From a virus (taxonomy: Duplodnaviria > Caudoviricetes): DNA of 64,000 nt. Below the pieces are notes generated by a model. That model was not told the DNA's origin and ran no database searches. It worked only from the letters and a program-made list of their open reading frames with translations. Of this stretch, positions 28,551-59,332 are shown one piece after another (positions within the stretch are counted from its first letter, which is position 1; the number at the start of each line of letters is the position of its first letter). The translations under genes were made by a program, and so were the position numbers. The stretch lies in IMG/VR virus record IMGVR_UViG_3300044991_001466; one strand, 5' to 3'.

Positions 28551-28782
28551 AGAAGAACAACACGAATTAAATAAAAAGGGTGTTGAAGCTATGACAAGAA
28601 TTGCAACCTCATTGGAGGGTATAAACGATTGGGTTTATACATTAAATACCGCAGCATGGTCAGAGAGACTAGAGTGGTATTTAAACGAATTTTATCAATT
28701 AGCTAAAGCAAAAACTATCGGTTCATCCGATAGACCAACAAAAGAATATGAAGAAGAAACTGGCGATAATAGTCCCTTATAG
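28537..28782 (+). CDS. Hypothetical protein
   Basis: 81-aa ORF coupled to both neighbours. Confidence 0.6.
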   Translation: MEISKEEQHELNKKGVEAMTRIATSLEGINDWVYTLNTAAWSERLEWYLNEFYQLAKAKTIGSSDRPTKEYEEETGDNSPL

Positions 28783-29995
28783 GGATAGAAGTACTCATTT
28801 AAATACGTTTATTTCATACATGGAATCTTATTTAAAAGATTACACATATGAAATCATTGTTATTAATCAAGCGGATAACCAACCATTTAATAGAGGTAAA
28901 TTATTAAACATCGGCGCAAAATATGCCATAGACAATGGTTTTGATTATTTGTGTTTTCACGATGTAGATATGTTACCAATTAATGCAGATTACTCATATC
29001 CTAAAGAACCAACAAGTCTAATATCTGAATTGGAAAATAAAGAAGGTAATATATTTTTTACTTACTTTGGAGGTATCACTTTATTTAATATTCAAGATTT
29101 TATAACGGTGAATGGATATTCTAATAACTATTGGGGGTGGGGATATGAAGATACTGATTTATTTTATAGAGTTACACATAGCGGATTATTTTTTGATTCT
29201 GAAATGATTGGTGAGAATGACTATTCTTTATTTTCTGTTGAATTAAAAGAAGAGGATTATATAAAAATACCAATAGACTCTAAATTCATTGATGGCGATT
29301 TTAATATTAAATTAACCACAAAAGTTGAATCTAAGTATTTCGATGAGAATAAAAATTATGATGAATATCCAATATTATCCATACCGGGATATAACATTGG
29401 TATTTTTTATAATTCATTTAATAGATTTTTTATACAGGTTTATGATACTAATAAAAAACCATATTCAATTACAACGGACATTTTAGATGACGTAACATCA
29501 AGTTTTACATTTTCTAAGGTTAGGAATACAATTTCATTCTCAATGAATAACAAATTAATTGGTGAAGTTGTTATGGATAGTCCAATACTTAATTTAGACA
29601 ATGAATTTATGTATATAGGAACGTTCTCTGAAAAAGAAAAAATCGAATTTGATTTAACAATAATTGACATTGAAATTGACGACTATCATTTAGGTACAAA
29701 TGATTATGAATTAATAGGTGGCGTTATTAATTCTGATAAAATGATATCACATAGAACTTCAATACCAAAACCAATTAGAAGAGAAGGGTTATATCGTGAA
29801 TTATATCACGACAGTAACTCATCAATTAACAAATCTTGGGTACATAAAGAAACTAGAAATAATCAAATATTTTTTAATAATTTTGTTAAGCAAAATTTAA
29901 TTGATTTCACTAAAGAAGGATTAAACACACTTCAATATGAATTAATTTCGGAAAAAGATAATAATAACCATAAAATTTTGTCCGTATCATTATGA
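28748..29995 (+). CDS. GT7 galactosyltransferase-like enzyme with inserted LamG-like domain
   Basis: AIIVPYRDR, PFNRGKLLNIG, FHDVDMLP, YFGGI, NGYSNNYWGWGYEDTD, C-terminal GLNTLQYE. Confidence 0.88.
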   Translation: MKKKLAIIVPYRDRSTHLNTFISYMESYLKDYTYEIIVINQADNQPFNRGKLLNIGAKYAIDNGFDYLCFHDVDMLPINADYSYPKEPTSLISELENKEGNIFFTYFGGITLFNIQDFITVNGYSNNYWGWGYEDTDLFYRVTHSGLFFDSEMIGENDYSLFSVELKEEDYIKIPIDSKFIDGDFNIKLTTKVESKYFDENKNYDEYPILSIPGYNIGIFYNSFNRFFIQVYDTNKKPYSITTDILDDVTSSFTFSKVRNTISFSMNNKLIGEVVMDSPILNLDNEFMYIGTFSEKEKIEFDLTIIDIEIDDYHLGTNDYELIGGVINSDKMISHRTSIPKPIRREGLYRELYHDSNSSINKSWVHKETRNNQIFFNNFVKQNLIDFTKEGLNTLQYELISEKDNNNHKILSVSL

Positions 29996-31404
29996 GTCAT
30001 AAATTAGGGATTTGTATACCATATAGAAATAGAAAAGAACATTTAGATAAATTAGTTCCACATCTTTCTGAACATTTAACAAAACAAGGAATAGAACATA
30101 CTTTTTATGTTGGACATCAACTAGACGATAAATTATTTAACAGAGGGGCGATGAAAAACATTGCAGCTAAATATGCGTTTGAAGATGGGTGCGACTATAT
30201 TGCATGGCACGATGTGGATATGTTACCACAAGAAAATGCGGACTATTCGTACCCATCGGAAACCCCTGTACATATCGCAACTAAATTGTCAAAGTATAAT
30301 TATGGTTTAGGTTATGATCAATACTTTGGTGGCGTTGTATTATTCACAAAAGAACAAGTTGAAAAAACTAACGGATACTCAAATGATTATTGGGATTGGG
30401 GAATGGAAGATGATGATTTATTTTGGAGATCATATTTTGAAGGTATGACAACTGGTGATATCTTTAAAGAATATAAAAGTAAAAAAATAGGTATTTTCAA
30501 TGGAATAAATTCACATGTTGAAATACCTGCTAATAGAAAATTAGTAGAATGTTTAAATAAAAACCATACAATATCTTTTTTAGTTTGTGCAGAACAACAA
30601 CCAGAGAAAGTACCAATTTGGTTAATTGGTGACAAAGAAAAGAAATTTATCGAATATCCAATCTTTGTAAAAACGGGCGGTTACAATTATATGTTATCTT
30701 TTAATAACTCAAGAGCCTTCACGATGAAAGTATTTGACGAAAGAAGAAACCCAATTTATAATTGGATTAAAAGATTTGAATCTCTTTGGACTTGGGTTAC
30801 GTTATCAATAGACACAGAAAATAATCAAATGTATTTTTATCTAAATAACGAACTGACAAGAAATCAATTCGGTACCAAAGAAAATTTACCAATTTCTTAT
30901 GAAGGTAAACTAATGAGATATGATTTAAGAAATCCATTTATGATTGGATTTGATAATTTTACTAACACAAGATTTAAAGGTAAAATTGCAAGAATAAAAC
31001 TATATAATAAATTTTTTAATAGTGAAGAAATAAATAACATAATTGATGATAAATTAGATACTCCACTATTAAATTTTGATTTTGATAATTTAACGCAAGA
31101 GTATCAATTAAACAACATTGATTTAATAGATGAACAAATTCAAGTTATTGAAAATATTATACCATTTAGAAGAGAGGGGGTTTTTGATTGTCTATCACAT
31201 ATAGATGAGGGTTATGTAGGGGGTACGTGGAAAAAAGGTGAAACTACAGCTAAAAATGAAAAAAGGTTTGTTTCTGAAATGCAACAAGGATTGATTAATT
31301 ACAAAGAAGATGGTTTAAATAATATATTGAATGTAATGGATATTGATAATGTAGATGTATCTTTATATCCAAACACTAAATTTATAAATGTAAAAATGAA
31401 ATGA
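29992..31404 (+). CDS. GT7 galactosyltransferase-like enzyme with inserted LamG domain
   Basis: ICIPYRNR, LFNRGAMKN, WHDVDMLP, YFGGVV, NGYSNDYWDWGMEDDD; FKGKIARIKLYNKFF LamG end. Confidence 0.88.
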   Translation: MSHKLGICIPYRNRKEHLDKLVPHLSEHLTKQGIEHTFYVGHQLDDKLFNRGAMKNIAAKYAFEDGCDYIAWHDVDMLPQENADYSYPSETPVHIATKLSKYNYGLGYDQYFGGVVLFTKEQVEKTNGYSNDYWDWGMEDDDLFWRSYFEGMTTGDIFKEYKSKKIGIFNGINSHVEIPANRKLVECLNKNHTISFLVCAEQQPEKVPIWLIGDKEKKFIEYPIFVKTGGYNYMLSFNNSRAFTMKVFDERRNPIYNWIKRFESLWTWVTLSIDTENNQMYFYLNNELTRNQFGTKENLPISYEGKLMRYDLRNPFMIGFDNFTNTRFKGKIARIKLYNKFFNSEEINNIIDDKLDTPLLNFDFDNLTQEYQLNNIDLIDEQIQVIENIIPFRREGVFDCLSHIDEGYVGGTWKKGETTAKNEKRFVSEMQQGLINYKEDGLNNILNVMDIDNVDVSLYPNTKFINVKMK

Positions 31405-32786
31405 GCGACTTTGACGTAACCAAAAGTGAATTAGATAAGGTAGGTTGTGGTATGTGTTTAGCAAAATGGACACAAGTTACTATGCATTTACACAATGGAA
31501 TGACACACTCATGTCATCACCCTGTACCACATAAAATACCATTAAGTGAAATAAAAGAAAATCCAACAGCATTACACAATACCAAATATAAGAAATTGGC
31601 TCGTAAAGAAATGTTGGAAAATAAAAGACCTGGTGAATGTGACTATTGTTGGAATGTTGAAGATAATTCTAATTCATTTTCAGATAGAGTATTTAAATCA
31701 AATGAATCTTGGTCATTACCACATTTAGAAGAAATTAAAGGATTAAATTGGAAAGCAAATTATAACCCAAAATATGTTGAGGTAAGTTTTTCAAATACAT
31801 GTAATTTTAAATGTGCATATTGTAGTCCAATGGCATCTTCAAAGTGGGTTGAAGAAATTGAAAAATTTGGTGGGTACCCGTTGTCATATAATTTTAACAA
31901 TTTAGAGTGGTTAAAAGAAACTGGTCAGTTACCATATAAACAAACAGAATACAATCCGTATGTGGAATCTTTTTGGAATTGGTGGCCTGAATTGTATAGA
32001 GACTTACATACATTTAGAATAACGGGTGGTGAACCATTGTTAGCTAAAGATACTTGGAAGGTATTAGATTTTATTGCTGAGACACCCGAACCAAACAGAA
32101 AACTAAATTTATCTATTAATACCAATTTAGGTGTACCAAAAAACTTGATTAATGAGTTTGTTAAAAAGGCTAAGAAGATAATTGAGGAAGATAGGGTTAA
32201 CGAATTTATTATATTCACATCATGTGAAACATGGGGAGAACAAGCTGAGTACATTAGATTTGGTTTGAACTTTAATCAATTCTTAGAAAACGTTGAATAC
32301 ATTCTACAAGAGTTACCTAAAGTGACTATCAACATTATGTCTACATTCAATGCCTTATCACCATTTGGTTATGATAAGTTAATTGATAAGGTACAAGAAC
32401 TAAAAGAAAAGTACCAAAATAAAGAAAGATATTGGAATTCGGCAATTCAATTAGATACTGCTTATTTAAGATGGCCACCACATTTATCCGTTAAAATTCT
32501 GGATAGAGAACATAAGGATTTAATCTTAGAGTCAGCTAAAAAGGCATTCTATTATGCAACACCAAAATTCACAAACGATTACTTTGGATTTTCAGATACC
32601 GAAGTTCAAAAGATTAAAAGACTTTATGATTTTGCAATATCTGATGATGGATTTGAAGTTGAAAAGAACAGATTAGATTTTGTTAAATTTGTTGATGAAT
32701 ATGACATAAGAAAGGGTACGAATTTTTTAAATACATTCCCACAATTAGAAAACTTTTATAATGAAATTAGAAATAAAAAAAGGTGA
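31401..32786 (+). CDS. Radical SAM protein with N-terminal SPASM/twitch-like Cys cluster
   Basis: CLAKW...SCHH...CDYC; CNFKCAYC; ITGGEP. Confidence 0.9.
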   Translation: MSDFDVTKSELDKVGCGMCLAKWTQVTMHLHNGMTHSCHHPVPHKIPLSEIKENPTALHNTKYKKLARKEMLENKRPGECDYCWNVEDNSNSFSDRVFKSNESWSLPHLEEIKGLNWKANYNPKYVEVSFSNTCNFKCAYCSPMASSKWVEEIEKFGGYPLSYNFNNLEWLKETGQLPYKQTEYNPYVESFWNWWPELYRDLHTFRITGGEPLLAKDTWKVLDFIAETPEPNRKLNLSINTNLGVPKNLINEFVKKAKKIIEEDRVNEFIIFTSCETWGEQAEYIRFGLNFNQFLENVEYILQELPKVTINIMSTFNALSPFGYDKLIDKVQELKEKYQNKERYWNSAIQLDTAYLRWPPHLSVKILDREHKDLILESAKKAFYYATPKFTNDYFGFSDTEVQKIKRLYDFAISDDGFEVEKNRLDFVKFVDEYDIRKGTNFLNTFPQLENFYNEIRNKKR

Positions 32787-33348
32787 ACCATGGGTCATGT
32801 GGCCCGACCTATTAGTGGGTAATTTTAACAATTTTCCTGCTAATAAAATTTTTGACCACAAGGGTGACTATGTTTTTACAATCGAGTTTGAATTGGTTGA
32901 ACAAATCACCGATAAAGTGTGTTTATTCTCAAAATTACCGTCATATTTGGGGGTTGATTTAAGAAATGGAGGGATTACCTTCACTTATTCACAAAAGGAT
33001 AAGGAGACGGATTATATTGACGCCAATTACAACTGGTTGGTTGGTAAGAAATATGAATTGAAAATTGAAAAGAAAGAAAAAAATGTTATATTAACAATAG
33101 ACAAGTTTCAAATTTTTAATTTTAAAATTGAAAACGATTTAAAAGAAGATTCTGACTCACATATTATATTTGGGGCAGGTAATTTTCCTAAAAATGGGTT
33201 TAATTTAAATTATTTTAACGTTATATTATACAGTATTAAAATAGTAAAAGATGGTGAAGTAATTTCACATAATGACTTTGAAAAATTCATACACGGAAAA
33301 AGTTATGATATAACCGGTAACTGTAATTTTATTCACAAAATAATATAA
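32761..33348 (+). CDS. Stand-alone LamG-like protein
   Basis: Beta-rich, similar to the inserts in the GT7 genes; ends HKII. Confidence 0.5.
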   Translation: MKLEIKKGEPWVMWPDLLVGNFNNFPANKIFDHKGDYVFTIEFELVEQITDKVCLFSKLPSYLGVDLRNGGITFTYSQKDKETDYIDANYNWLVGKKYELKIEKKEKNVILTIDKFQIFNFKIENDLKEDSDSHIIFGAGNFPKNGFNLNYFNVILYSIKIVKDGEVISHNDFEKFIHGKSYDITGNCNFIHKII

Positions 33349-36082: not shown

Positions 36083-37060
36083 ATGTACGATTGGTATAAA
36101 TGGAAATTAATTGATAAATTACAAAAAAATTCCAAAGCAATTATTGGAATTGGAGATAGCTTTACTCAAGGTCAGGGCGCATGTTCTATTGAGTTATGGA
36201 AAAAACATAATTGGGATTTAGGTGGTGTTGGAATTAAAGATGAAAGAGAGTTACTCACATCTTTTTATGAAAATTCTTGGGTTAATAAATTATGTACAAA
36301 TCATTTTACTGACCACATACCAATTAATTTAGGTATGGTTGGAAGGGGTAATAGAGGTGCGGTAAAAGAACTTTATTTACATCCAGAACTTAATTTAGAA
36401 TCTATAGAAGAAAAGATAGTAATTTTCATGTTAACAGGTATTGAACGATTTGATTTTATACATAAAAATTTACATGAACATATTCATTTTTTAACAATTT
36501 GGCCAGACCCAATGGCACAAGGAGACCACTCCAAATTATGGACAGAATATTACGAATCAATTTGGAGTGATAAATTTGGTATAATTGAAATGTTATTGAG
36601 TATAGCCGAAGCCAAAACATGGTGTAAAGCCCATAATGCTAAATTATATTTAATAAGCGCATTTAGACCTGAATATGAAAGACAACCATTTATAAGAGGA
36701 ATTATGGGTGATATTGATGATGAATCAAATTATCTATATAAACAAACTGAATATATAAAAAGTTTAGTTGATATTATTGATTGGAAAAAATTTATTAGAC
36801 CAAATGGATTTAAGTGTGTTAGTGATTTTCTTTGTTCATTAGAAAATAGAGATGATTTAATTGAAGAAATTGGGTCTGCAAAGTATTATGAATTTGCTGG
36901 AAAAATTAAAAAATTTAGTCCTAAAGGATATGTTACAAATTGTGCGCATCCATCTCAAAAAGGACACGAAGCAATTGCAAAATCAATATATGAATCAATC
37001 ATTGAAGATTTAAATAAAGAAGAAGAAATAATAACAAATAAAACAAAAAATTTAATATAA
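36083..37060 (+). CDS. SGNH/GDSL-like protein
   Basis: GDSFTQGQG, NLGMVGRGN, AHPSQKGHEAIA; ends KNLI. Confidence 0.7.
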   Translation: MYDWYKWKLIDKLQKNSKAIIGIGDSFTQGQGACSIELWKKHNWDLGGVGIKDERELLTSFYENSWVNKLCTNHFTDHIPINLGMVGRGNRGAVKELYLHPELNLESIEEKIVIFMLTGIERFDFIHKNLHEHIHFLTIWPDPMAQGDHSKLWTEYYESIWSDKFGIIEMLLSIAEAKTWCKAHNAKLYLISAFRPEYERQPFIRGIMGDIDDESNYLYKQTEYIKSLVDIIDWKKFIRPNGFKCVSDFLCSLENRDDLIEEIGSAKYYEFAGKIKKFSPKGYVTNCAHPSQKGHEAIAKSIYESIIEDLNKEEEIITNKTKNLI

Positions 37061-39831: not shown

Positions 39832-41478
39832 TTAATTTGCAACCCGACTTTTGTCAAAAAAATCTTTTTTATATATGAAATCGATAAATGTGAATCGTCT
39901 GAAATTATTTTTAACAGCCTCAACTGCATGTTCAGGATTGTTTTCAGTAAAGTCTAATATACAGAAATTATCGTTTATTGGTAAAACCGTTGTTTGTATT
40001 TTATTTTCCTCTATAATTAATTGACCACCACCATCATTATAATCTTTTTCGTAAGATAAGTAAATCAATATCACACTAATTCTACCTTCATTTTTTCCAT
40101 CTCTATGTTTTTCAATAAAATCACCATTCTCATATAAAGTAAAATTGGAAACATGGGACATATTACCAATATATTCTGGATATAATTTACCCATTAAATT
40201 CTCAGAAATCTTCTCAAAATATTCTTTTAATCTATCCAATGTGTAACTTGGTCCTTGACTTTCCCACCAACGTTGTCCAATCTTACGATTATTTTCAATA
40301 ATATATTGTTCTCTTAATGGTATTTCTTCTTCAGTAAGAAGTATTTTATAATTTTCCTGCGGGCTATAAATGTTATAATCTAAACGGTATTTGTAAATGT
40401 CCTTAGTTTCGGAAGACTTAAATAATAAATCAATCTTTTCAAAGAATTCATCTTTGTTTGTTGTTAATTCATTTGTGTTGCCAACATAATAACCAGATTT
40501 TAAAAAATCATTAATACTAACACTAATACCATCTACAGGTTCCAATTTACAATAATAAGAATAAACTTTATTTAGTCCATCTTTAAATGATGTTTTAGGA
40601 AATAATCCATATAGATTTTGTTTGGTGACATCCATTTGTCTTCTTAAATCACCGTTTGGTTTGCTTGGGTCCCAAATAATTTTAATTGTTTTATTACTAG
40701 AAAGAATTAAACTTTCCACCATAGATTTAATAGTAATTTCTTCACCCGAACCAAAATTTACAATATCATTTATTTGTTTATCGTACATTTGATAAATTGC
40801 ATCTGCAACATCTTCTCCATAAACAAAATCCCTAATCGGACTTCCATCACCCCAACATTCTATTGTATCGTCCGAGTGATAAACTTTTTTAACCGTACTA
40901 GATATTACGGTACCTCCGCCAGTAAAATCATCATATTCACCGTATATGTTTGCTGGTCTAATTATTGACCATTTTTTATATCCATATTGAACTTTATATG
41001 CTTCTAATAATAGTTCACCCATCCTTTTAGACCATGATGGAAACCAATCATGTTCAGATGGTAATGTTTTCCACACATCATCCTCAACAAATTTCTCAGA
41101 AGGAGCGTAGACACCAACAGAACTCATAAAAACTAACCAAATATCCATTTTTGAACATTGATTAATTAATTCAGTATTGATTTTAAATGAAGGATAAAGA
41201 AAATCTACCGGAGATTCTTTGGCCCTTATTGGTGACCCCTTAACACCAAACGCGTTTACAACAACATCTGGTTTATGTCTGTTTAATACATCTCTAATAT
41301 TATTATCTACAGTTAAATCTAAACATTCATATTTAAATTTATCTTCATGTTCGTAAAATATTTTAATTTGTATTGGTTTAATGTCAACGCCAACAACAAT
41401 AAAATCTTCTTTTAAAAATTTCTTTATTAAATAAGTTCCCACTAAACCAGAACATCCGGTTATTAATACTGTTTTCAT
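39832..41478 (-). CDS. GDP-fucose-synthase-like epimerase fused to a 2OG-Fe(II) oxygenase
   Basis: TGCSGLVG...RPANIYG...WGDGSPIRDFVY; C-terminal HRD...IYL...GGQL...HAV...R. Confidence 0.82.
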   Translation of the reverse strand: MKTVLITGCSGLVGTYLIKKFLKEDFIVVGVDIKPIQIKIFYEHEDKFKYECLDLTVDNNIRDVLNRHKPDVVVNAFGVKGSPIRAKESPVDFLYPSFKINTELINQCSKMDIWLVFMSSVGVYAPSEKFVEDDVWKTLPSEHDWFPSWSKRMGELLLEAYKVQYGYKKWSIIRPANIYGEYDDFTGGGTVISSTVKKVYHSDDTIECWGDGSPIRDFVYGEDVADAIYQMYDKQINDIVNFGSGEEITIKSMVESLILSSNKTIKIIWDPSKPNGDLRRQMDVTKQNLYGLFPKTSFKDGLNKVYSYYCKLEPVDGISVSINDFLKSGYYVGNTNELTTNKDEFFEKIDLLFKSSETKDIYKYRLDYNIYSPQENYKILLTEEEIPLREQYIIENNRKIGQRWWESQGPSYTLDRLKEYFEKISENLMGKLYPEYIGNMSHVSNFTLYENGDFIEKHRDGKNEGRISVILIYLSYEKDYNDGGGQLIIEENKIQTTVLPINDNFCILDFTENNPEHAVEAVKNNFRRFTFIDFIYKKDFFDKSRVAN

Positions 41479-46191: not shown

Positions 46192-47448
46192 ATGGAAAAT
46201 AACACAAAAAAACTAAATTTAGTTTACGATAAGTGGGATGACAACACAAAAAAACCAACACCAAACGGTAGTTGGGATGCCTCTAACTTAATAAACCATT
46301 TCATAAATGATTCATTTAAATACAATAAATTTGAGTTGAAAAATTGTAAATTAGAAGATGTTTATGAAAATAAAAATGAAAAATACTATTATTTTTTTAC
46401 ACACGGTAGAGAGGAACTATCAAAAATTTTTGACAGAGAATTACCATTTGAAATTGATATATTAAACTGTTTAAAAGACTGCCCAAATTTTTATTTTGTT
46501 TACATTACAGAACATGAACCAGATAATGAAAGTGGGTTCAGAATGTTACGAGAATTTATATCTTATCAAAAATTAAACGAAACACAATTTTACGTCATAA
46601 ATAATAATGATAAACTTAATGAATATAAAATAAAATATAATAGTAATATAAATGTGCATTCATTGCAATTCATAGCTCACTCCTCAACAAAAGTTTTAGA
46701 TTATGTTGGCGGGTGTAGTTTTATTCCTAACAAAACAGGTAAATTTGCTATGTTATTTAATAAATCCCCGAGATCTCAAAGGGCGTGTTTGTTATGTCTA
46801 TTAATGAAAAATGGATTACTTAACCAAATGAATTGGTCTTTTGTACCAACATATAATGTTAACATAGATGAAAGGTATTTTAAGGATTTATTAAGTGAAA
46901 ATGATATAAATGACATTAAATCTGAGATTGATGATTTTTCTAAATTAGAAATTAAAATCAGTGATTTTGAGGAAGAAAAAAATTGGTTTAACAAACACGA
47001 ACAACCAAATATGGCTGGGTTACCAAAAATAATGACAATACCAGAGTACCCAAAAAATTATGAAAATTCATATGTTAACATTGTTACCGAATCAATGTAT
47101 TTTAAAAAGTATAATGTAATCCACATAACTGAAAAATCATTTAGACCATTTTATTATTATCAAATCCCATTAATATTGGCGTCCGAAGGACATGTTAAAA
47201 AAATAAAAGAGAGATATGGGTTAGATTTTTTTGACGACATCATTGACCACAGTTATGATGGTATTAAAAATGATAGAGATAGATTATATGCTTTTGTAAA
47301 AGAAATTGAAAGAATACATCAAAATAAAGACCAAATCATTGAATTTTATAAAAAAAATCAAGAAAGATTTGAAGATAATAAAAGAAAAATCATTAAAAAT
47401 TTAGATTTAGTTAATGATGAATATGAATTTTTTAAAAACTTAATTTAA
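46192..47448 (+). CDS. GT-B/GT10-like putative glycosyltransferase, paralog 4 of 4
   Basis: FNKSPRSQR, NIVTES...HITEKSFRPF..QIPLIL...FDDIIDHSYD; ends KNLI. Confidence 0.55.
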   Translation: MENNTKKLNLVYDKWDDNTKKPTPNGSWDASNLINHFINDSFKYNKFELKNCKLEDVYENKNEKYYYFFTHGREELSKIFDRELPFEIDILNCLKDCPNFYFVYITEHEPDNESGFRMLREFISYQKLNETQFYVINNNDKLNEYKIKYNSNINVHSLQFIAHSSTKVLDYVGGCSFIPNKTGKFAMLFNKSPRSQRACLLCLLMKNGLLNQMNWSFVPTYNVNIDERYFKDLLSENDINDIKSEIDDFSKLEIKISDFEEEKNWFNKHEQPNMAGLPKIMTIPEYPKNYENSYVNIVTESMYFKKYNVIHITEKSFRPFYYYQIPLILASEGHVKKIKERYGLDFFDDIIDHSYDGIKNDRDRLYAFVKEIERIHQNKDQIIEFYKKNQERFEDNKRKIIKNLDLVNDEYEFFKNLI

Positions 47449-48158
47449 TGGGAACATTATGGACTTTTGGTTGCAGTTTTACTGCGGAGTGGTATCCAGT
47501 GGGATATGAAAACCCATCGACATACGATGAATATAAAAAATTTAAAGGAGGTACGTTACCTGATGTGTGGCCAATTATTTTAGGTAAAAAATTAAATTAT
47601 GACCTTAGAAACTGTGCCTTTGGTGGGTCATCAAATTATAATATATTAAAACAGTTTATTAATGCAATTGATAACATAAATGAGGGGGACATATTAATAT
47701 TTGGATGGACAAGTTTACTTAGATTTTGTGCTGTTAGTGAATCGGAACATAAAATTATTGAAATGTTACCAAGATATTCATATGATGTAAATGTTGGTTA
47801 TTCAAAAACAACTGTTGATGAAATATTGGTTAATAGGTCACATCCATTATGGGCGGAAGAGGTTAATAATTGGATTAAGTTTATTAATGATTATTGTTGT
47901 TTAAAAAATGTTGAGATATTTCATTGGAATAGTGATATTTTGTTGTTTGACGAGAACTCCAAATTTATTGATGATAAAAAATACATATTACCACCAAAAG
48001 GAAATCAGAATGAAACAATGATTAATTATTTTACCAATAATATAGGAACAATACAAGATGAAACTGATGGTAAAATTAATGATTTACATTTAGGTGAGTT
48101 TGGTCACATTAAACAAGCTGAATATTTTTATAATCACATAAAAAAACACATAAAATGA
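47448..48158 (+). CDS. SGNH/GDSL-like protein
   Basis: FGCSFT, NCAFGGSSN, DLHLGEFGH. Confidence 0.7.
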   Translation: MGTLWTFGCSFTAEWYPVGYENPSTYDEYKKFKGGTLPDVWPIILGKKLNYDLRNCAFGGSSNYNILKQFINAIDNINEGDILIFGWTSLLRFCAVSESEHKIIEMLPRYSYDVNVGYSKTTVDEILVNRSHPLWAEEVNNWIKFINDYCCLKNVEIFHWNSDILLFDENSKFIDDKKYILPPKGNQNETMINYFTNNIGTIQDETDGKINDLHLGEFGHIKQAEYFYNHIKKHIK

Positions 48159-48778
48159 GGTTAATAACATTTGGAGATAGTTGGACTGCGGGTCATGGTA
48201 TTGAAACTGATATAAAATATAAAGAGGAACCATTTCCAGATGCATTCACACAAAAATTAAGGGATATGAATTCGTGGCCAAGATGGGTTGCACAAAAACT
48301 TGATTGTCCATATGTTAATCTTGGTGTTTGTGGTTATGGAAACGAATACATTTTAAATGAGATTGATGGAATTAAAAATTTTGGATTATTATCTAAAGAC
48401 GACATCATCATTGTTATGTTCTCATATCCATATAGATATAAATCTAAAGATAGTCACAATGTTGTTGAGATATTCTTACTAATGGAAGAAATTTTAAAAG
48501 ATTATAAACATTTTTATTTTAATTCATTTTACCCATCGTTTAGGGAGGAGGATGTCGACACCAAAAAACTACCATCATATTTCATTAATCCCGATGGGTG
48601 TGTTTCAGATATTTTAAGGGAATATGAAATTAAAAATGATGAATCAGTTTGGGAGTATGGTAATAGAAGTGTATGGAATGACGAGGAAAATTTTTACGAG
48701 GGAGATTATCACCCAAATTTAAATGGTTATAAAATAATTGGAGATTACATATATGAACAAATTAATAAAATTATATAA
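48155..48778 (+). CDS. SGNH/GDSL-like protein
   Basis: FGDSWTAGHG, NLGVCGYGN, DYHPNLNGY; ends NKII. Confidence 0.75.
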   Translation: MRLITFGDSWTAGHGIETDIKYKEEPFPDAFTQKLRDMNSWPRWVAQKLDCPYVNLGVCGYGNEYILNEIDGIKNFGLLSKDDIIIVMFSYPYRYKSKDSHNVVEIFLLMEEILKDYKHFYFNSFYPSFREEDVDTKKLPSYFINPDGCVSDILREYEIKNDESVWEYGNRSVWNDEENFYEGDYHPNLNGYKIIGDYIYEQINKII

Positions 48779-52024: not shown

Positions 52025-52459
52025 ATGATATATTGGTTTACAGGTCAACCTGGTGCAGGAAAAACAACATTAGCTAAACATTTAGTTAATTATTTTGAGA
52101 ACAACAACGTAATTCACGTTGATGGTGACGATTTACGCGATATCTTTCAAAATAAAGACTATTCCGAGGTTGGAAGAAGGAAAAACATCGAAAGGGCTCA
52201 GGATATTGCGAGATTTATGAGTGAAAAGGGGTTTAACGTAATCGTATCCTTAGTTTCACCTTATAAAGACCAAAGAGACCAATTTAAAGAGAATAACAAC
52301 GTTACTGAAGTCTATGTACATACCACAGATGAAAGAGGTAGAGAAGGGTTTCACGTGTCTAACTATGAAAAACCTACGGACAATTTCGTAGAGATTGACA
52401 CAAGTAACAGAAAAGAGGTCGATTCGTTTATTGAATTAACTATTAAATTAAAAATATGA
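52025..52459 (+). CDS. cysC: Adenylylsulfate (APS) kinase, short form
   Basis: WFTGQPGAGKTT, DGDDLR, DYS..GR..NI, VSLVSPY, YEKP. Confidence 0.9.
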   Translation: MIYWFTGQPGAGKTTLAKHLVNYFENNNVIHVDGDDLRDIFQNKDYSEVGRRKNIERAQDIARFMSEKGFNVIVSLVSPYKDQRDQFKENNNVTEVYVHTTDERGREGFHVSNYEKPTDNFVEIDTSNRKEVDSFIELTIKLKI

Positions 52460-52836
52460 GTAAAAAGTACGCAATGTATGTGGGACGTTGGCAAAATTGG
52501 CATAAGGGTCACGAATGGCTCCTTAACCAACAAATAGAGAAGGGGAAAGACGTGTGGGTGGCAATTAGAAATGTACCAACTGACGAAAATAATCCAAAAA
52601 CCGCACAACAAGTAATGATGGATTTGGCTGAAGAACCTTTCTTTAAAGAAAATTCACATAAAATTAATATATCAATTATTCCCGATATTGAGAGTATTAA
52701 TTATGGTAGAGGAGTAGGTTATGATGTAATATATCACGAACCACCAACTGAGATAGCAACGATTAGTGGAACGGCAATTAGAACTGGTCACATGACACCT
52801 GATGGTGAAATTAAATATGATCAAACAAAAGGATAA
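52456..52836 (+). CDS. HxGH-superfamily nucleotidyltransferase
   Basis: GRWQNWHKGH signature and SGTAIR (SxT.IR) C-terminal motif; 126 aa. Confidence 0.8.
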   Translation: MSKKYAMYVGRWQNWHKGHEWLLNQQIEKGKDVWVAIRNVPTDENNPKTAQQVMMDLAEEPFFKENSHKINISIIPDIESINYGRGVGYDVIYHEPPTEIATISGTAIRTGHMTPDGEIKYDQTKG

Positions 52837-53051
52837 TGATAGTAGAACGTAAACGACACATAGCGAAAACCATCTCATATCGTATTGTAAGTACCTTCAT
52901 CGGGTTCTTATTAATGTGGTTGATAAGTGGTTCAATTAAAGTAGGGGCGGCATTTGGGGTGGCAGAATTGATTTATAAACCCATCCAATATTATGTTCAC
53001 GAAAGAATATGGTATAAATGGATAAAATTTGGGTTAAAAGATAAAAAATAA
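52836..53051 (+). CDS. DUF2061-like small membrane protein
   Basis: AKTISYRI, ISGSIKVG, E..YKP..YYVHERIW. Confidence 0.75.
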   Translation: MIVERKRHIAKTISYRIVSTFIGFLLMWLISGSIKVGAAFGVAELIYKPIQYYVHERIWYKWIKFGLKDKK

Positions 53052-53077: not shown

Positions 53078-54565
53078 ATGAGAACAGTATTAATAGGTTC
53101 GGACTTTATGTACGATAAAGATGGTAATTTAAAACCCATTGAAATAAACACTGCAGTAGGATGGGATGGACTTCAGAAGATTGAGGATAATATAGATTGT
53201 TTGGATTTAACGGGTTTATACCAATTTATTGAAACTAAAGGATTTACATCCGTACATTATGTGGGCGATATACCATATATAAACGAAACGTTAGAAACTT
53301 ATTATAGTGGAAGTTCAATCACATATGAATATCATTTGGTTAATAAATTAGCCATCACAGTGCCATTTATTGAAGATAATGATGAAACATTAATTATTAG
53401 AAGTTCATATGACACAACAGCATTGGTAGATGATACATATTGTAAAGATAAGGTTAATTTTTTAAATTTAATTAAAGATTCTTCATTCGGTTCTCAATTT
53501 GCTTATTTAGATGAATCAAACCAATTAGTGTCAAACATTACAACAATTAATGATAATGGGGAACACCCAAACTTTATTTTAAAGGCGAGATATCCTTCTT
53601 ACGATAAAGAAGTTTATCCTAAATTTTTTAAGGTATCAACACAAGAAGAATTGAATACAATTTTAGAGAATGTAACATCGGATTACTTCTTAATGGAGAA
53701 TTATTGTAACACCACCAATAATTTTGAAGGACATGTAAAAGTTATAAGAAGTTTAAATATATTGTATCCACCAACATTAGAATCAATACAAATTGGTCAA
53801 TACACTAGAATTAATCAAAATATAATTTTTTCTAATGTAGAATATGATTCAATAACTCATATGTTAAATTCGGAATATAGAGAGAGTTATATAACATTAA
53901 CAACTATTAAAGGAGTACCCAAATTATTAGACACAGATTTAGTAGAAATGCCAGATGGTACGTTTAAAACTGCATTAGATTTAAACGTTGGGGATGTAAT
54001 CAAAACAATTGATATACCAAATCCAAATGGTGTGGATAATCAATCATATCTTGCAAATTTTGAAATAACATACGAAACACTTGTATCAGGTACAACTTAT
54101 TCAACAAATAAAATTGTCAATAAAAAAAGAGTAAATTTATTAACATATATTAATCGATTAACTTTTGATGATAATAGTACATGGGAAGATACGTCAATTT
54201 CTTCTTATTTAATTGAAAGAGATAATGTTATACAATTTGAAGAAATACATGGTATAAAAATGGGAGATGTTGTTTTATTATTAGATACAACAGAGGGATT
54301 GGTAGATTTTATTAGAAAAAATGTTGTAGAAAATGTAGAGACTAAAACAATATTTTCCGGTTGGTTTATTACAGTAGAAAATGCTCATCTATTTTTAACT
54401 AAAACATCATCTACAAATAATGAATCTTTTGTTTCCATTGAACATAATGCTGGTGAAGCTTGTTATTATTGCTCCGGCGGGTCTCAATCTGCTTACTGCC
54501 CTAAATCGGCACCATATTGTGGAGCATATGGATATTGTGTATATTCTCCTGAATATTGTCCATAA
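53078..54565 (+). CDS. Permuted ATP-grasp-like domain + Hint domain + C-terminal Cys-rich peptide
   Basis: GSDF..DKDG.LKPIEINT at the N-terminus, FILKARYP, FLMENY; Hint-like region 53921-54448 (LLDTDLVEMPDG..K...L.VGD.I; ITVENAHLF...IEHN); then 38 aa with 6 Cys. Confidence 0.7.
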   Translation: MRTVLIGSDFMYDKDGNLKPIEINTAVGWDGLQKIEDNIDCLDLTGLYQFIETKGFTSVHYVGDIPYINETLETYYSGSSITYEYHLVNKLAITVPFIEDNDETLIIRSSYDTTALVDDTYCKDKVNFLNLIKDSSFGSQFAYLDESNQLVSNITTINDNGEHPNFILKARYPSYDKEVYPKFFKVSTQEELNTILENVTSDYFLMENYCNTTNNFEGHVKVIRSLNILYPPTLESIQIGQYTRINQNIIFSNVEYDSITHMLNSEYRESYITLTTIKGVPKLLDTDLVEMPDGTFKTALDLNVGDVIKTIDIPNPNGVDNQSYLANFEITYETLVSGTTYSTNKIVNKKRVNLLTYINRLTFDDNSTWEDTSISSYLIERDNVIQFEEIHGIKMGDVVLLLDTTEGLVDFIRKNVVENVETKTIFSGWFITVENAHLFLTKTSSTNNESFVSIEHNAGEACYYCSGGSQSAYCPKSAPYCGAYGYCVYSPEYCP

Positions 54566-54572
54566 ATTATTG

Positions 54573-54607
54573 TAAAATAAAATAAAATAAAATAAAATAA
54601 AATAAAA
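54573..54607 (+). repeat. Simple tandem repeat (TAAAA)7
   Basis: Seven perfect pentamers; the last A is the A of ATG 54607. Confidence 0.9.
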
Positions 54608-54696
54608 TGGCAAAAATTATAACAAATACCGAAATTAATACGTTAAATACAACCCTAACAACTATTGGTAATTTAATAGTAACCGCAAATAGTTAG
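54607..54696 (+). CDS. Possible 29-aa micro-ORF
   Basis: MAKIITNTEINTLNTTLTTIGNLIVTANS fills the gap between the Hint gene and 54719. Confidence 0.35.
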   Translation: MAKIITNTEINTLNTTLTTIGNLIVTANS

Positions 54697-54718: not shown

Positions 54719-55018
54719 ATGAAATTAGATTTTAAAGAAATATCAACGGCTTGGTATAATAAACTTATACATTCTAATGAATTAAAAAAATTAGCTGATG
54801 ATAGATTTGATATTTGTTTAGAATGTCCGTCTAAAAAAGAAATTTTCAAAGGTAAACAATGGTCTCTCAGGTGTGGAGAATGTGGGTGCCCTTTAGCAGG
54901 TAAAGTATATACATCTAATACATATTTGGATAAAAACGGATCATGTCCATTAGAAAAGTGGAAAGAAGTTGAGATTGAATATTTAAAAAATTTTAAAAAA
55001 ATGAAAACTTTTATATAA
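54719..55018 (+). CDS. Small Cys-rich metal-binding protein (DUF6171-like)
   Basis: RFDICLECP...CGECGCPL..K...CPLEKW; ends KTFI. Confidence 0.7.
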   Translation: MKLDFKEISTAWYNKLIHSNELKKLADDRFDICLECPSKKEIFKGKQWSLRCGECGCPLAGKVYTSNTYLDKNGSCPLEKWKEVEIEYLKNFKKMKTFI

Positions 55019-55019
55019 A

Positions 55020-55703
55020 GTGTCTTATTTAATTAATAATGAACTTATTTGGGTTTCTATTCCAAAATGTGCAAGTTACTCTATTGAACGAGCACTTAGA
55101 AATTCAAAACTAAAATTAGATACCTACGACCCAAATATTATTATAGACGAGCACCTTCACGTCCCATTAACTGAGTGTTTATCACTATGGGGAAACAAAG
55201 AAACTGTTTGTATAACCAGAGATTATGTGCATAGATGGATGAGCTCTTTAAATTTTATTTGGGATAAAATAGAATTTGAAAGTGATTATACCCTTATTCG
55301 TAAATGGGAAGATGTTGATAATGAATTTTTATATAAAATGTTTGATACCAAGTTTCTCAATGATTTACATTCATTTGACGGCAATGATTTAGAAACAAAA
55401 AATTGTTTTTTAAAATTAGTAAAAGAAAAATACGACATTTTAAAAAAAATGCCATTTATAATGATAACCTTAGTTTCCCCAAACTTTTTTAAATCCAATA
55501 GAAAATGTACATATGAGTTTGACATTAAAGAAATAGATAAATTTGTTGATTTTATTGAAGATAGATTTGGTGAAAGATTAATTATAGAGAGCACTAACCA
55601 ATCTACAAAAAGACCAAATAAAATTATAATAAATGATGAATTAAAATCATTTATTTTAGAAAATTTTGAAAATAGATTTAAAAAAAGAAATCAATTAATA
55701 TAG
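55020..55703 (+). CDS. Sulfotransferase-like protein (Sulfotransfer_2-like)
   Basis: WVSIPKCASYS PSB-like loop, TRDYVHRWMS 3'-phosphate-binding-like motif; GTG start; ends NQLI. Confidence 0.7.
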   Translation: MSYLINNELIWVSIPKCASYSIERALRNSKLKLDTYDPNIIIDEHLHVPLTECLSLWGNKETVCITRDYVHRWMSSLNFIWDKIEFESDYTLIRKWEDVDNEFLYKMFDTKFLNDLHSFDGNDLETKNCFLKLVKEKYDILKKMPFIMITLVSPNFFKSNRKCTYEFDIKEIDKFVDFIEDRFGERLIIESTNQSTKRPNKIIINDELKSFILENFENRFKKRNQLI

Positions 55704-55706
55704 TAT

Positions 55707-56180
55707 ATGCAAATATATAAAAACATATTAACAAATGATTTTTGTGATATTTTAATAGAAAAAATTAAGAATGAATGTGTATTAAGTGAATCTCATAAAA
55801 AAGGGTGGTATGTTTGGTTAATTTGGGGACAACAACCCAGTCAACCACTAAGTAGAGAAAAGTGGAATGAAGAAATCTATAATATGGTAACTGATGAGTT
55901 AAATAGATGTAATTTTCCTAAACATAAAACAATGTGGCTACAAATGACAGAATATAAAGATGGTAGGTGGTTACGAAGACATGTAGATGGTGCAGGAAAT
56001 AAAACAATAATAATTTTGTTATCCAATGAATTTGTGGGTGGAGATACATATATAAATGATAGTGTTGTAAATTTAAAAAAGGGCGATGGTGTTATATTTG
56101 ATGGGGGTTATCAATATCATGAAGTAACACCAGTAACAGAAGGAACACGATACGCTTTAAATTTTTGGTTATATAAATAA
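55707..56180 (+). CDS. 2OG-Fe(II) oxygenase
   Basis: Y..G..L.RHVD, LLSNEFVGG, GDGVIF, YHEVTPVTEGTRYAL. Confidence 0.9.
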   Translation: MQIYKNILTNDFCDILIEKIKNECVLSESHKKGWYVWLIWGQQPSQPLSREKWNEEIYNMVTDELNRCNFPKHKTMWLQMTEYKDGRWLRRHVDGAGNKTIIILLSNEFVGGDTYINDSVVNLKKGDGVIFDGGYQYHEVTPVTEGTRYALNFWLYK

Positions 56181-56189
56181 CAATATAAT

Positions 56190-57233
56190 ATGGTAGATTT
56201 AAAGAATTATGTTTGTAGTGTTCCTTTTAATTCATTAGAAATACATAATAATGTTTGTTTTGTTTGTTGTCCATCTTGGTTACCAAATAAGATTGAAATA
56301 TCAGAAGTACCACTAAAGGATATGTGGAATAGTGAACCAATCGTTGATATTAGAAATTCTATATTAGATGGTTCATTTAAATATTGTAATAAAGAACTTT
56401 GTCCTTATTTAAGTAAATTAATAAACTATGGTGTGACATCTGGTCCAGTCAGACTGAAATCAGATTCAAATATTAATAATCCAATTATTGAAAATAATAC
56501 ACCCGATTATTTGGTAATGAATTTTGATAGAACTTGTAATTACAAATGTCCATCATGTAGAGTTGATTTAATTGTTGAAAATAGTGAAGGGATAAAAAGA
56601 GTTGAAAAAACAATTGAAGATATTGATAAATATTATTCAGCAAATGTAAAAACTTTATACATAACAGGTTCTGGAGACCCATTTGTTTCAGTCGGGTTTA
56701 GAAATTATTTAAGAAATTTTAATCCAAAAAAATATCCAAATTTAAAATCAATACACTTACATACCAATGCCTCAATGTGGAATAAAGAAATGTGGGATAG
56801 TATGCCAAATATTCACAAATATGTCGGTACCTGTGAAATCAGTATAGATGCAGGAACAAAAGACACATATGAAAATAAAACAAGATTAGGTGGTAATTGG
56901 GAAAATTTATTGAGTAATTTAAAATTTATTAGTACCATACCGAATATTAATGTAAAAACTTCCTTTGTTGTACAAGATAGTAACTATACTGAAATGGAAA
57001 CATTTTATAATTTAATGTATTCTATTTTTGGTAAAAAAGTAAATGTGTTTTTTGGTAAAATAACAAATTGGGGTACATTTTCAGAGGGTGAATTCAAATT
57101 TAAACAGGTATGGGATACCGAACACCCAGAACACCAATTATTTAAAAAAGAATTTAATAAGGTATGGAAAAACACAAATCTATTTCATAATCTATATGAG
57201 TTTATTGAGAGCACTAATAAAACATTGATATAA
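56190..57233 (+). CDS. Radical SAM protein with N-terminal SPASM-like cluster
   Basis: CSVPF...CC..W...C...CP; CNYKCPSC; TGSGDPF; ends KTLI. Confidence 0.88.
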   Translation: MVDLKNYVCSVPFNSLEIHNNVCFVCCPSWLPNKIEISEVPLKDMWNSEPIVDIRNSILDGSFKYCNKELCPYLSKLINYGVTSGPVRLKSDSNINNPIIENNTPDYLVMNFDRTCNYKCPSCRVDLIVENSEGIKRVEKTIEDIDKYYSANVKTLYITGSGDPFVSVGFRNYLRNFNPKKYPNLKSIHLHTNASMWNKEMWDSMPNIHKYVGTCEISIDAGTKDTYENKTRLGGNWENLLSNLKFISTIPNINVKTSFVVQDSNYTEMETFYNLMYSIFGKKVNVFFGKITNWGTFSEGEFKFKQVWDTEHPEHQLFKKEFNKVWKNTNLFHNLYEFIESTNKTLI

Positions 57234-57247
57234 TTTAACATAATAAA

Positions 57248-57817
57248 ATGGTTATTACAATAATCGCCGAACCAAGAAGTGGGTCAACAAATTTAGCAGA
57301 TTATTTTAAATCAAATAAAGATTTTACTATTTTACAAGAACCATTAAATAAATATGGAAAATCGTATCAAAAAAATAATCCAATTAATAAATGGACTTAT
57401 AATACAAAACACTTATTAATTAAGGAAATATATGACCCAAATAAAAACTTAAAAGAATTAATACAATTTTCAGATAAAATAATTATTCTTTATAGAGAAA
57501 ATAAAAATGAACAATTAGAATCTTGGTTAGTTGCAAAGGTAACCAATAATTGGCGGGGTAAATGGGTAAATAGTAAAATTCGTATACCTAACAAAGAATT
57601 AAAAATTCAGTTTTTTAATAAAATGGTTAATGAGTTTGAAATAGAATATAGATTAAATAATGATATGTTTAAAATATCATATGAAGAACTTTATTACAAG
57701 AATGGTTTTGAAAAAATAGTGAATTATCTTAATATTGATAGTGTTAAGAATATTGATTTTCCATATGGTCAAAAATATAGGTTGGACAAAATAGAAATAA
57801 ATAAAACTTTAATATGA
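57248..57817 (+). CDS. Sulfotransferase-like P-loop protein (Stf0-like)
   Basis: IAEPRSGST, EPLN, LYREN..EQLES, ISYEEL; ends KTLI. Confidence 0.7.
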   Translation: MVITIIAEPRSGSTNLADYFKSNKDFTILQEPLNKYGKSYQKNNPINKWTYNTKHLLIKEIYDPNKNLKELIQFSDKIIILYRENKNEQLESWLVAKVTNNWRGKWVNSKIRIPNKELKIQFFNKMVNEFEIEYRLNNDMFKISYEELYYKNGFEKIVNYLNIDSVKNIDFPYGQKYRLDKIEINKTLI

Positions 57818-58518
57818 TAAGGATATATTACCACATATATGTCATTGATGGCGTTGAATCTATAATAAATGAACAACTGACATTAATAAAAAAATACATT
57901 AATCAACCATATTCATTAACTATTGGCATCTCAGTATCAGAAAATAATAATTCAGTAGACGATATGATTAAATTAATTTATGGGTATGATTCAAAAATTA
58001 TAATCGGTGATACTAAATTAATGGGTAACGAGTTTATAACATTAAATTTAATAGAAAGAGATAAATCATCATTTGATGACACTGACTACATTTTGTATTT
58101 ACACACAAAGGGAGCTTCTAAACAAATGAATTCCGAATCTATCCGATGGAGAAATGTAATGCAATTACATAATATTCAATATATTGATAACGTATTTGGA
58201 ATTTTGGATAATGAAGTTTTTAACACATATGGTTTTTTATTAGAAGTAGTAAGTAACCCTACAAATATAATGTACTCTGGTAATTTTTGGTGGATGACCG
58301 GACAATACGCTAAAACAATAGACATAAGTAATGTTGATATTACAAATAGATGTAATGCAGAGTTACAATATATTCAAATGGGAACGGATTGGAAACCCTA
58401 TTCAATAATTAGAAAGGGAGATAATTGGAAACCTTATTCATACTTTATTAAGGACAAAGGGGGGGGGATAGAAAAACGTAATATTAACACAAAATTAAGT
58501 TTTAATAAATTAATATAA
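57814..58518 (+). CDS. Putative glycosyltransferase-like protein
   Basis: YYHI, YILYLHTKG, YSGNFWW, R..AE..I motifs; ends NKLI. Confidence 0.5.
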   Translation: MIRIYYHIYVIDGVESIINEQLTLIKKYINQPYSLTIGISVSENNNSVDDMIKLIYGYDSKIIIGDTKLMGNEFITLNLIERDKSSFDDTDYILYLHTKGASKQMNSESIRWRNVMQLHNIQYIDNVFGILDNEVFNTYGFLLEVVSNPTNIMYSGNFWWMTGQYAKTIDISNVDITNRCNAELQYIQMGTDWKPYSIIRKGDNWKPYSYFIKDKGGGIEKRNINTKLSFNKLI

Positions 58519-58528
58519 TTATGAATAT

Positions 58529-59332
58529 ATGGACCCGTTAAAATATTGGACGTTAGATGGATTTGAAATATCATCATTTAAGTTTAATTTAAATGAAAGA
58601 AAGGGAAAGACGTATAAAACATGCGGTTCCGATGGTACTGGCTTGTGTAGCTATGCCTATAATGAATTAGGATTTAGGGGAGATAGTGTAAAAAAAGAGG
58701 GATTTAAAGTAATGTCATTAGGTTGTTCTCATACCGAAGGTGTCGGTGTTAATTACAATGATATGTGGTCAACACGATTTACAAATCGTATACCCAATGG
58801 TGTTAATATGAATTTTGGTACAGGTGGTAGAAGTAATGATTTTATTACTAGATGTCTATTAACATATTACGATGTGGTAAAACCTGATTTGGTATTAATA
58901 ATGTATACATCACCATTAAGAAGAGAAATATACACAAAAGATGGTAATATAGAACCATTTATTCCCGCTCGTTCATGGGGATATATGGGTGAAACTGAAG
59001 ACGGTAAACAAACACAAAGTTATTTAACTGAATTACAAAATGATAATGAAGATTTAATTAATTGGTATAAAAATCATCAACTAATAAAATTATTCTTAGA
59101 AACTAAAAATTGTAATTGGATTTGGAATGGGTCGTTTGGTATACCAAGTGAATTTAAAGAGCCTAACAGATTTGATGGTGAATATCAAATTTTTATCGAT
59201 AAGGGTGTTGAAGGGGGACATGCTGGCCCCGAACAAAATAAAAGTTATGCAAATAAATTATACGACTTCATAACTGAAAATTTCCCAAATTACATAAATG
59301 TTTTATCAAAAAATAAACAAAGTTTGATTTGA
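58529..59332 (+). CDS. SGNH/GDSL-like protein
   Basis: YNELGFRG, LGCSHTEGVG, NFGTGGRSN, GHAGP; ends QSLI. Confidence 0.7.
   Translation: MDPLKYWTLDGFEISSFKFNLNERKGKTYKTCGSDGTGLCSYAYNELGFRGDSVKKEGFKVMSLGCSHTEGVGVNYNDMWSTRFTNRIPNGVNMNFGTGGRSNDFITRCLLTYYDVVKPDLVLIMYTSPLRREIYTKDGNIEPFIPARSWGYMGETEDGKQTQSYLTELQNDNEDLINWYKNHQLIKLFLETKNCNWIWNGSFGIPSEFKEPNRFDGEYQIFIDKGVEGGHAGPEQNKSYANKLYDFITENFPNYINVLSKNKQSLI

Follow-up and report, generated by a model that had tools for sequence, protein, structure and literature searches.

Why should enzymes of different folds, encoded side by side in a phage genome, end in the same few residues? This question is raised by a stretch of 64,000 nt from the IMG/VR virus record IMGVR_UViG_3300044991_001466 (Duplodnaviria; Caudoviricetes), hereafter the window, in which six of the seven genes of a run lying behind an ATP-grasp-Hint fusion gene carry a C-terminal tail of the type [KNQH]-x-[LIF]-I. 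Genes are named here by their first position, the fusion gene being 53078, and are called tagged when they bear this tail. Every open reading frame (ORF) of the window was translated to read the gene endings (63 genes), which verified all ten tagged endings listed in the initial annotation, six in the run and four at lower positions (Table 1). The exception within the run is gene 55707, encoding a 2-oxoglutarate- and Fe(II)-dependent (2OG-Fe(II)) oxygenase, and the four large fibres as well as the minus-strand nucleotide-sugar genes were found to lack the tail, as had been claimed. A count of terminal peptides against an AT-matched null model, given by the internal peptide frequencies of the window's own proteins, placed the excess of tails far above chance: the ten [KNQH]-x-[LIF]-I endings compare with about 0.1-0.3 expected, or 0.14 if the pattern is narrowed to [KNQH][KNQST][LIF]I. 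The last two residues by themselves gave a similar picture, with ten [LIF]I endings vs 1.07 expected (p about 1e-7) and seven genes ending LI-COOH among the 63 vs 0.43 expected (binomial p about 1e-8).

The window has many relatives in IMG/VR, uncultured phages, most of them from fresh water, whose contigs reach 335 kb. A first set of 81 loci, comprising 80 IMG/VR loci around the radical S-adenosylmethionine (SAM) gene and the window itself, contained 1487 ORFs in 257 families, 91 of them with at least three members. Endings of the type [LIFM]I occurred in 540 of the 1487 ORFs, compared to 32 expected, and 30 of those 91 families were mostly tagged, whereas in untagged families the final residue was mostly K and not L-I. 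The family-weighted consensus reads K(-6) K(-5) x [K/N](-3) [K/S/T/N](-2) [LIF](-1) [ILF](0)-COOH, with K/I/T/N and K/N at positions -4 and -3, L (.68), I (.21) or F (.08) at position -1 and I (.67), L (.21) or F (.07) at position 0; the choice between I and L at the end formed a continuum within genomes, with no discrete switches. Orthologues retained the tail, as best seen in the radical SAM family, where all 81 members are tagged and 60 end in KTLI with synonymous codons that differ among members. Likewise, in the family of the 55020 product L-I is constant and position -2 variable (NQLI, NELI, NALI, KTLI). Even the distant homologues (25-33% identity) that the 46192 product has in other phages end in QSLI or KTLI, while its three paralogues within the window, at 34801, 41475 on the minus strand and 44945, end in KKML, KEIK and NEIS.

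The carriers include the radical SAM enzymes, several families of 2OG-Fe(II) oxygenases, Asp/Asn beta-hydroxylases, cupins, SET-domain methyltransferases, short-chain dehydrogenases/reductases (an assignment that lies below cut-off in the relatives), GDSL/SGNH hydrolases, a sulfotransferase and a small Cys-rich protein, with the tagged 2OG oxygenases, SET-domain proteins and Asp/Asn hydroxylases being found in the relatives. The diversity of folds proposed in the initial annotation was borne out, since the radical SAM enzyme of the window lies above the Pfam cut-off and the sulfotransferase could be placed by structure. Indeed, an AlphaFold2 model of the 57248 product matched sulfotransferase folds of both the SULT and the TPST kind (5x2b, E 3e-5; TPST 5wrj), and its sequence contains an RxGST motif of the loop that binds 3'-phosphoadenosine 5'-phosphosulfate (PAPS); on this fold match and this motif rests its designation as sulfotransferase-like. 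By contrast, the individual identities given to the GDSL/SGNH and Zn-ribbon proteins of the window were reached only below cut-off, the Lipase_GDSL_2 match of the 48155 product scoring 28.1 bits vs a curated cut-off of 32.9 and the Zn-ribbon matches of the 54719 product being weak. As a group, the tagged enzymes are modifiers of proteins and peptides. No tag is found on the PAPS-supply enzymes of the same operon, and the make-up of the cassette varies even among close phage relatives.

Several lines of evidence point to selection on the peptide and not on a copied DNA motif, in agreement with the initial annotation. At position -1 of 549 tails, Leu codons were used much as inside genes (TTA.70 vs.62, TTG.13 vs.15, CTT.08 vs.10, CTA.09 vs.10), all three stop codons follow the tail, and several synonymous codons occur within single families. 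In the alignments the last two residues stay constant while the preceding linker differs in length and sequence through insertions and deletions, so that the tail behaves as short linear motifs generally do, its amino acids kept, its codons varying synonymously and its flanks diverging. Some orthologues, including the 55707 oxygenase of the window, are devoid of both linker and tail and end after the catalytic core. In addition, the AlphaFold2 model of the 57248 product loses confidence in its last 19 residues, where pLDDT drops from about 90 first to 51 and next to 37, with values below 50 over the last ten. Divergence of the linker, joint loss of linker and tail and the low-pLDDT end together identify the tail as an appended, flexible and modular signal. 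The only hints of a signal at the DNA level, be it a by-product of AT-rich codon bias near stops or an overlapping DNA or RNA signal for the next gene, are a mild preference for ATA as the terminal Ile codon (.61 in tails vs.41-.48 inside genes) and the close proximity of the next start codon behind most tagged genes. However, other tightly packed junctions of the window lack the ending, the tail follows the gene family whatever the next gene may be and is also present on minus-strand genes, its enrichment is local and not genome-wide, and it is retained in a lineage of 39% GC. Together with the codons, the stops and the linker indels, these observations make such an origin, whether through promoter, translation-initiation region, coupling signal or AT bias, barely credible, and we rejected it as far as sequence analysis allows.

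The distribution of tagged genes was further compared in two complete relatives of 335,630 bp and 179 kb, and in both of them the tags cluster around the 53078-family gene. In the larger genome, 16 of the 39 genes between 257 and 295 kb end in [LIFM][IL], compared to 23 of 343 elsewhere (Fisher p 5e-8), and the smaller one has 16 tagged genes, half of them no more than about 12 kb from the 53078-family gene. Outside the cluster of the larger genome, 23 such endings were seen vs about 12 expected. Among the loci selected via the radical SAM gene, the 53078 family is the only untagged family found in all 40 loci of at least 15 kb. A second set was selected by the 53078-family gene alone, the central gene being located in 68 loci; here tagging reached 71% in the first downstream gene, 91% in the second, 85% in the third and 75% in the fourth, remaining at about 50% up to the tenth, while upstream genes were tagged in 7-38% of cases and genes beyond position +11 in 0-39%, with no sustained level. 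The consensus of the tail is identical across subtypes of the 53078 family that share just 20-30% identity. Among seven distant lineages drawn from 150 representatives of the family, five had at least one third of the neighbours tagged, including marine (TARA contigs) and 39% GC lineages; in one relative (L103) only marginal tail variants surround the 53078-family gene. The tail, a real, modular and disordered element selected as a peptide, is confined to the cassette and its surroundings and is co-distributed with the ATP-grasp-Hint gene.

The product of this gene is itself unusual. Residues 1-277 constitute a circularly permuted ATP-grasp domain resembling glutathione synthetase and YjfC (fold matches 5oeu, 2hgs and 7uk6), residues 280-457 a Hint domain of the bacterial intein-like (BIL) type (6y75, BIL2, E 7e-8, as well as inteins) that terminates in an invariant His-Asn, and behind it follows a Cys/Tyr-rich hypervariable peptide of 38 residues in the window and of 25-40 across the family. 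The AlphaFold2 model has a pLDDT of 83 with a disordered tail. The catalytic residues D9, E22, N24, T25, R108, K169 and R224 of the ATP-grasp core are invariant in nearly all 150 representatives. The Hint domain appeared, in an alignment made by eye, without an N-terminal nucleophile. Both domains are strongly acidic, with net charges of -20 and -15, and the tails slightly basic, although the latter trend is weak (p 0.06). The family is large, with 694 representatives at E <= 1e-3; below E 1e-30 it forms 263 clusters at 50% identity. Tandem canonical mini-inteins take the place of the Cys-rich peptide in some members, one of which, of 912 residues (L062:3218-5953), has three of them; each extends from Cys to His-Asn, nothing but the dipeptides RF and KF lies in between, and the end is HNK. 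Taken as a whole, the layout suggests a peptide precursor that releases itself, with its tailoring enzymes encoded behind it. The ATP-grasp motif YDTTA seemed in three cases a suggestive marker of tag presence and was then dropped, as it varies widely among the 150 representatives and lineages with an altered motif still have tagged neighbours.

Our preferred explanation, to which we assign a probability of roughly 0.45, is that the tail acts as a C-terminal docking label bringing peptide-modifying enzymes to the ATP-grasp-Hint precursor or scaffold. The flexible K/N-rich linker and the ending [K/N]-[T/S/K/N]-[L/I/F]-[I/L/F]-COOH would constitute a short linear motif specific to one pathway, through which many unrelated small modifying enzymes might be recruited to one common partner. 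The likeliest partner would be the acidic 53078 product, with its hypervariable Cys-rich peptide as the substrate, and its folded ATP-grasp-Hint part could take the role that the leader peptide has in ribosomally synthesized peptides that undergo post-translational modification (RiPPs). After tailoring, Asn cyclization at the invariant His-Asn might free the peptide. An enzyme gaining the tail would be plugged into the pathway, which would account for the differences in tagged enzyme sets from phage to phage. Recruitment of this kind would also explain why the tail occurs only on enzymes with a macromolecular substrate, why it is gained and lost as a module and why the sets of enzymes are combinatorial. 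We infer here that tail and partner bind physically, what the receptor is and in which order the events occur, and it is the genomic association that favours the link between the tail and the 53078 product; a single co-folding job of the 53078 product (alignment A1) with the 57248 product (A2) gave a score of 0.01, which we used neither way. A more specific version, possible but held more tentatively, is that of a plug-and-play code, in which a folded leader protein would offer a pocket for L-I-COOH tails and its Hint domain would cleave only C-terminally. About ten acquired C-terminal residues would then suffice for an enzyme to join the pathway, a reversal of the recognition between RiPP leaders and the RiPP recognition element (RRE) that might let phages shuffle peptide-tailoring chemistry rapidly.

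Several observations weigh against the docking label. The invariant catalytic core marks the ATP-grasp domain as an enzyme and not merely a scaffold, and just two residues of the tail are strongly conserved, a feature also typical of protease degradation signals. A short marine contig (L099) bears a 53078 homologue with zero tagged neighbours. Moreover, tagged genes also occur 5-20 kb away from the 53078 family, as between 32761 and 48778 in the window, and a few are placed elsewhere in the genome, such as those of two GDSL hydrolases that the 335-kb relative encodes at 310 and 316 kb, so that the scope of the tail is wider than the immediate cassette.

The strongest competitor, in our view an unlikely one, is that the tail is a degradation signal (degron) by which an AAA+ protease would read the hydrophobic free C-terminus behind basic residues and remove or remodel the tailoring enzymes at a set time, the candidates being a phage ClpC-like unfoldase with ClpP or the host ClpXP, ClpAP, FtsH or Lon. 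The ssrA tag and the MuA-type ClpX signal likewise comprise two nonpolar residues with the carboxylate and basic residues before them; the tail is similar in size, and in the model of the 57248 product it provides the disordered and exposed nonpolar end that such signals require. This reading stays live because relatives encode both ClpP and a ClpC-like unfoldase. ClpP is present in all six related cassette-bearing phage records, its gene in the 335-kb relative (L178:1363-2037) having intact catalytic motifs, and the same relative encodes a 670-aa ClpC-like double AAA+ protein (L180:1204-3213, minus strand), lacking the N-domain and endowed with a VGF loop for ClpP docking, that was found in two of the six records. 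However, the ClpC-like gene is missing from the complete 179-kb relative, which carries both tags and a 53078-family gene. The tail is restricted to one pathway and not to genes of one temporal class, the same operon contains PAPS-supply enzymes that lack it, and the excess of such endings outside the cluster indicates no avoidance by other phage proteins. Nor is there an evident benefit in destabilizing about 30 enzyme families during a lytic cycle.

Two further proposals would give the tail another destination or another chemistry. As a cargo or targeting signal it would address enzymes to a compartment, a membrane site, a factory or the virion without binding the 53078 product. Encapsulin cargo was recognized by just such a pattern, a common short C-terminal extension on unrelated enzymes, and glycan and fibre genes outside the cassette are also interspersed with genes for tagged GDSL and other enzymes. 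We regard this as improbable, given the very tight positional tie to the 53078 family, a consensus unlike that of known cargo peptides, the absence of an encapsulin gene from the complete relative and the improbability of cofactor-dependent enzymes such as radical SAM enzymes and 2OG oxygenases in a virion. An encapsulin shell as the partner of the tail was rejected, as no match to PF04454 (Linocin_M18 encapsulin) was found in the two phage records searched, the complete relative included. Less probable again is that the tail carboxylate serves as a substrate of the 53078 ATP-grasp domain, to be converted into an acyl phosphate and then ligated to an amine such as the N-terminus created when the Hint domain releases a peptide. 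The N-domain resembles glutathione synthetase and ligases of the YjfC type, which act on the C-terminal carboxylate of short peptides; a pocket of dipeptide size would agree with the recognition of no more than the last two residues, and the near-invariance of the catalytic core agrees with an active ligase. Yet ligating 5-13 different enzymes to one acceptor would make little functional sense, a ligase acting on its own fused peptide would be simpler, and the marine homologue that has no tagged neighbours possesses an intact catalytic core.

Around this core, the cassette displays further features (Table 1). The 54719 gene is the first full-size gene after 53078, with a 29-aa micro-ORF in between that is preceded by a (TAAAA)7 repeat at 54573-54606. 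Of 49 type-A loci, 47 have this micro-ORF 18-32 nt downstream of the 53078-family gene; type B and other loci lack it, while in distant lineages an ORF of 39-48 residues occupies its position. The micro-ORF was rejected as the receptor of the tail, being missing from subtypes that retain tags; it is an accessory of one subtype, dispensable for the tag. Directly upstream of the ATP-grasp-Hint gene, in the window (52025-53051) and in many loci, lie three untagged genes encoding an adenosine 5'-phosphosulfate kinase, a 126-aa HxGH nucleotidyltransferase and a 71-aa DUF2061-like membrane protein, which looks like a PAPS-supply module serving the sulfotransferases. The 2OG oxygenase family is strongly expanded, with 184 members in the 81 loci and up to five per cassette; 150 of these 184 are tagged, and the 55707 product represents a tagless subgroup that terminates directly behind the catalytic core. 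In the window, and likewise in several relatives (among them L001, L007, L019, L042-L046), the gene of such a tagless oxygenase immediately precedes that of the tagged radical SAM enzyme, and both enzymes may form a working pair with one common tag (55707-56180 and 56190-57233 in the window). The untagged members of the family to which the 58529 product belongs stop ahead of the linker. Farther away, region 26587-31404 encodes three paralogous glycosyltransferases of the GT7 type (beta-1,4-galactosyltransferase-like), of which two carry a fused concanavalin/laminin-G domain, an array that recurs in the 39% GC relative L103. On the minus strand, 39832-41478 encodes an untagged NAD-dependent sugar epimerase/dehydratase with a fused C-terminal 2OG-Fe(II) oxygenase domain.

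Table 1. Tagged genes of the window, with the ATP-grasp-Hint gene and the untagged genes that accompany them.
Position	Strand	Product	C-terminus	Tag codons	Family members tagged	Remarks
32761..33348	+	195-aa laminin-G-like protein	HKII	33334-33345		Laminin_G_2 just below cut-off
36083..37060	+	325-aa GDSL-like protein	KNLI	37046-37057		Weak GDSL/DUF6071 matches
46192..47448	+	418-aa protein of family 10	KNLI	47434-47445		
48155..48778	+	207-aa SGNH/GDSL hydrolase-like protein	NKII	48764-48775		Lipase_GDSL_2, E 3.5e-6
53078..54565	+	495-aa ATP-grasp-Hint-peptide fusion	No tag			Candidate partner of the tail
54607..54696	+	29-aa micro-ORF	NS			Conserved; core IGxLI
54719..55018	+	99-aa Cys-rich Zn-ribbon-like protein	KTFI	55004-55015	Family 6: 48/52	
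55020..55703	+	227-aa enzyme, fold not assigned	NQLI	55689-55700	Family 3: 64/65	
55707..56180	+	157-aa 2OG-Fe(II) oxygenase	LYK, no tag		Family 0	Pfam PF13640, E 1.2e-9
56190..57233	+	347-aa radical SAM enzyme	KTLI	57219-57230		Pfam PF04055, above cut-off
57248..57817	+	189-aa sulfotransferase-like protein	KTLI	57803-57814	64/64	
57814..58518	+	234-aa protein, family not assigned	NKLI	58504-58515	Family 29: 8/8	
58529..59332	+	267-aa GDSL/DUF6071-like protein	QSLI	59318-59329	Family 2: 42/70	GDSL/DUF6071 below cut-off

If the tail is a docking code, at least ten enzyme folds would be guided to one substrate carrier by a very small, transferable handle of some five to ten residues, a new way for biosynthetic cassettes to stay modular. 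It would also allow all enzymes of the pathway to be located in metagenomes by a simple sequence rule, and could be reused for assembling enzyme sets on a scaffold. Should it instead be a degron, what a phage-encoded Clp protease is specific for would thereby be defined, which would likewise be new. The tail makes the nature and the maturation of the hypervariable Cys-rich peptides of abundant aquatic phages directly testable.

Searches of 50,697 deposited phage records at the DNA and protein levels gave no match, be it to the region, to the 53078 product or to the radical SAM enzyme, and a scan of GTDB genomes found no relative of 53078. The tagged-family 2OG oxygenases do have homologues in cyanomyoviruses, at 28-35% identity. 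Tandem arrays of several 2OG oxygenases, accompanied by carbamoyltransferase, sulfotransferase or halogenase genes, have been described in cyanophages (Iyer et al. 2010, PMC2938197). What both share is the phage-borne array of 2OG oxygenases; the one cyanophage region that we checked, that of S-CAM8, differs in having neither the tail nor a 53078-family gene.

Comparison with the short C-terminal addresses of other systems narrows what the tail could be. Its resemblance to a PDZ-type ligand, proposed in the initial annotation, did not hold. PDZ ligands, of which class I reads [ST]-x-hydrophobic-COOH, share with it the free C-terminus and the hydrophobic last residue; however, their position -1 is free to vary, whereas here it is constrained like position 0, and S or T occupies position -2 in roughly one third to one half of cases (.36 family-weighted,.51 in the raw tails of type-A loci), a hydrophobic residue never being found there. 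The tail fits neither the class I motif nor that of class II, hydrophobic-x-hydrophobic-COOH, and the complete 335,630-bp relative gave no match to PF00595 (PDZ), PF13180 (PDZ_2), PF17820 (PDZ_6) or PF03572 (S41), so a phage-encoded PDZ protein or tail-specific protease was rejected as the receptor. The cargo peptides of encapsulins, such as those of DyP and ferritin-like proteins, come closer, since they also are C-terminal extensions that follow a flexible linker on unrelated enzymes near the partner gene and are dispensable for the enzyme fold, an arrangement that recurs here across thirty families. They differ in consensus, which in known cargo peptides is of the GSL type, and the neighbour here is an ATP-grasp-Hint-peptide fusion in place of a shell. 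The beta-clamp motif QL[SD]LF ('toolbelt') and the C-terminal tip of the single-stranded DNA-binding protein offer the parallel of many enzymes gathered by one short hydrophobic-ended peptide, in many cases C-terminal, on one hub. The tail, however, has no Q-L at positions -4 and -3 and thereby fits neither Q-L-[SD]-L-F nor Q-L-x-L-x-L, its carriers modify peptides and not DNA, and its hub is a candidate. With the degrons of ClpX and ClpA (ssrA, MuA-type) it has in common the last two to three nonpolar residues with the carboxylate, the preceding basic residues and the disordered end; even so, L-I is no known ssrA ending, the tail is restricted to one pathway and one complete tagged relative is devoid of the ClpC-like gene.

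The recognition of RiPP leaders by the RRE resembles the present system in its use of one handle for many tailoring enzymes, in its hypervariable core peptide and in its combinatorial enzyme sets. The polarity, however, is reversed, since here a short handle sits on the enzymes and 457 residues of folded ATP-grasp and Hint domains on the precursor, and no match to the PqqD/RRE families of Pfam was found in about 35 tagged enzymes scanned. Neither the tail nor the ATP-grasp-Hint fusion was found described in the literature. The tail belongs to a known kind, the short C-terminal address common to unrelated enzymes, whereas its motif, its genomic context and its likely partner are new.

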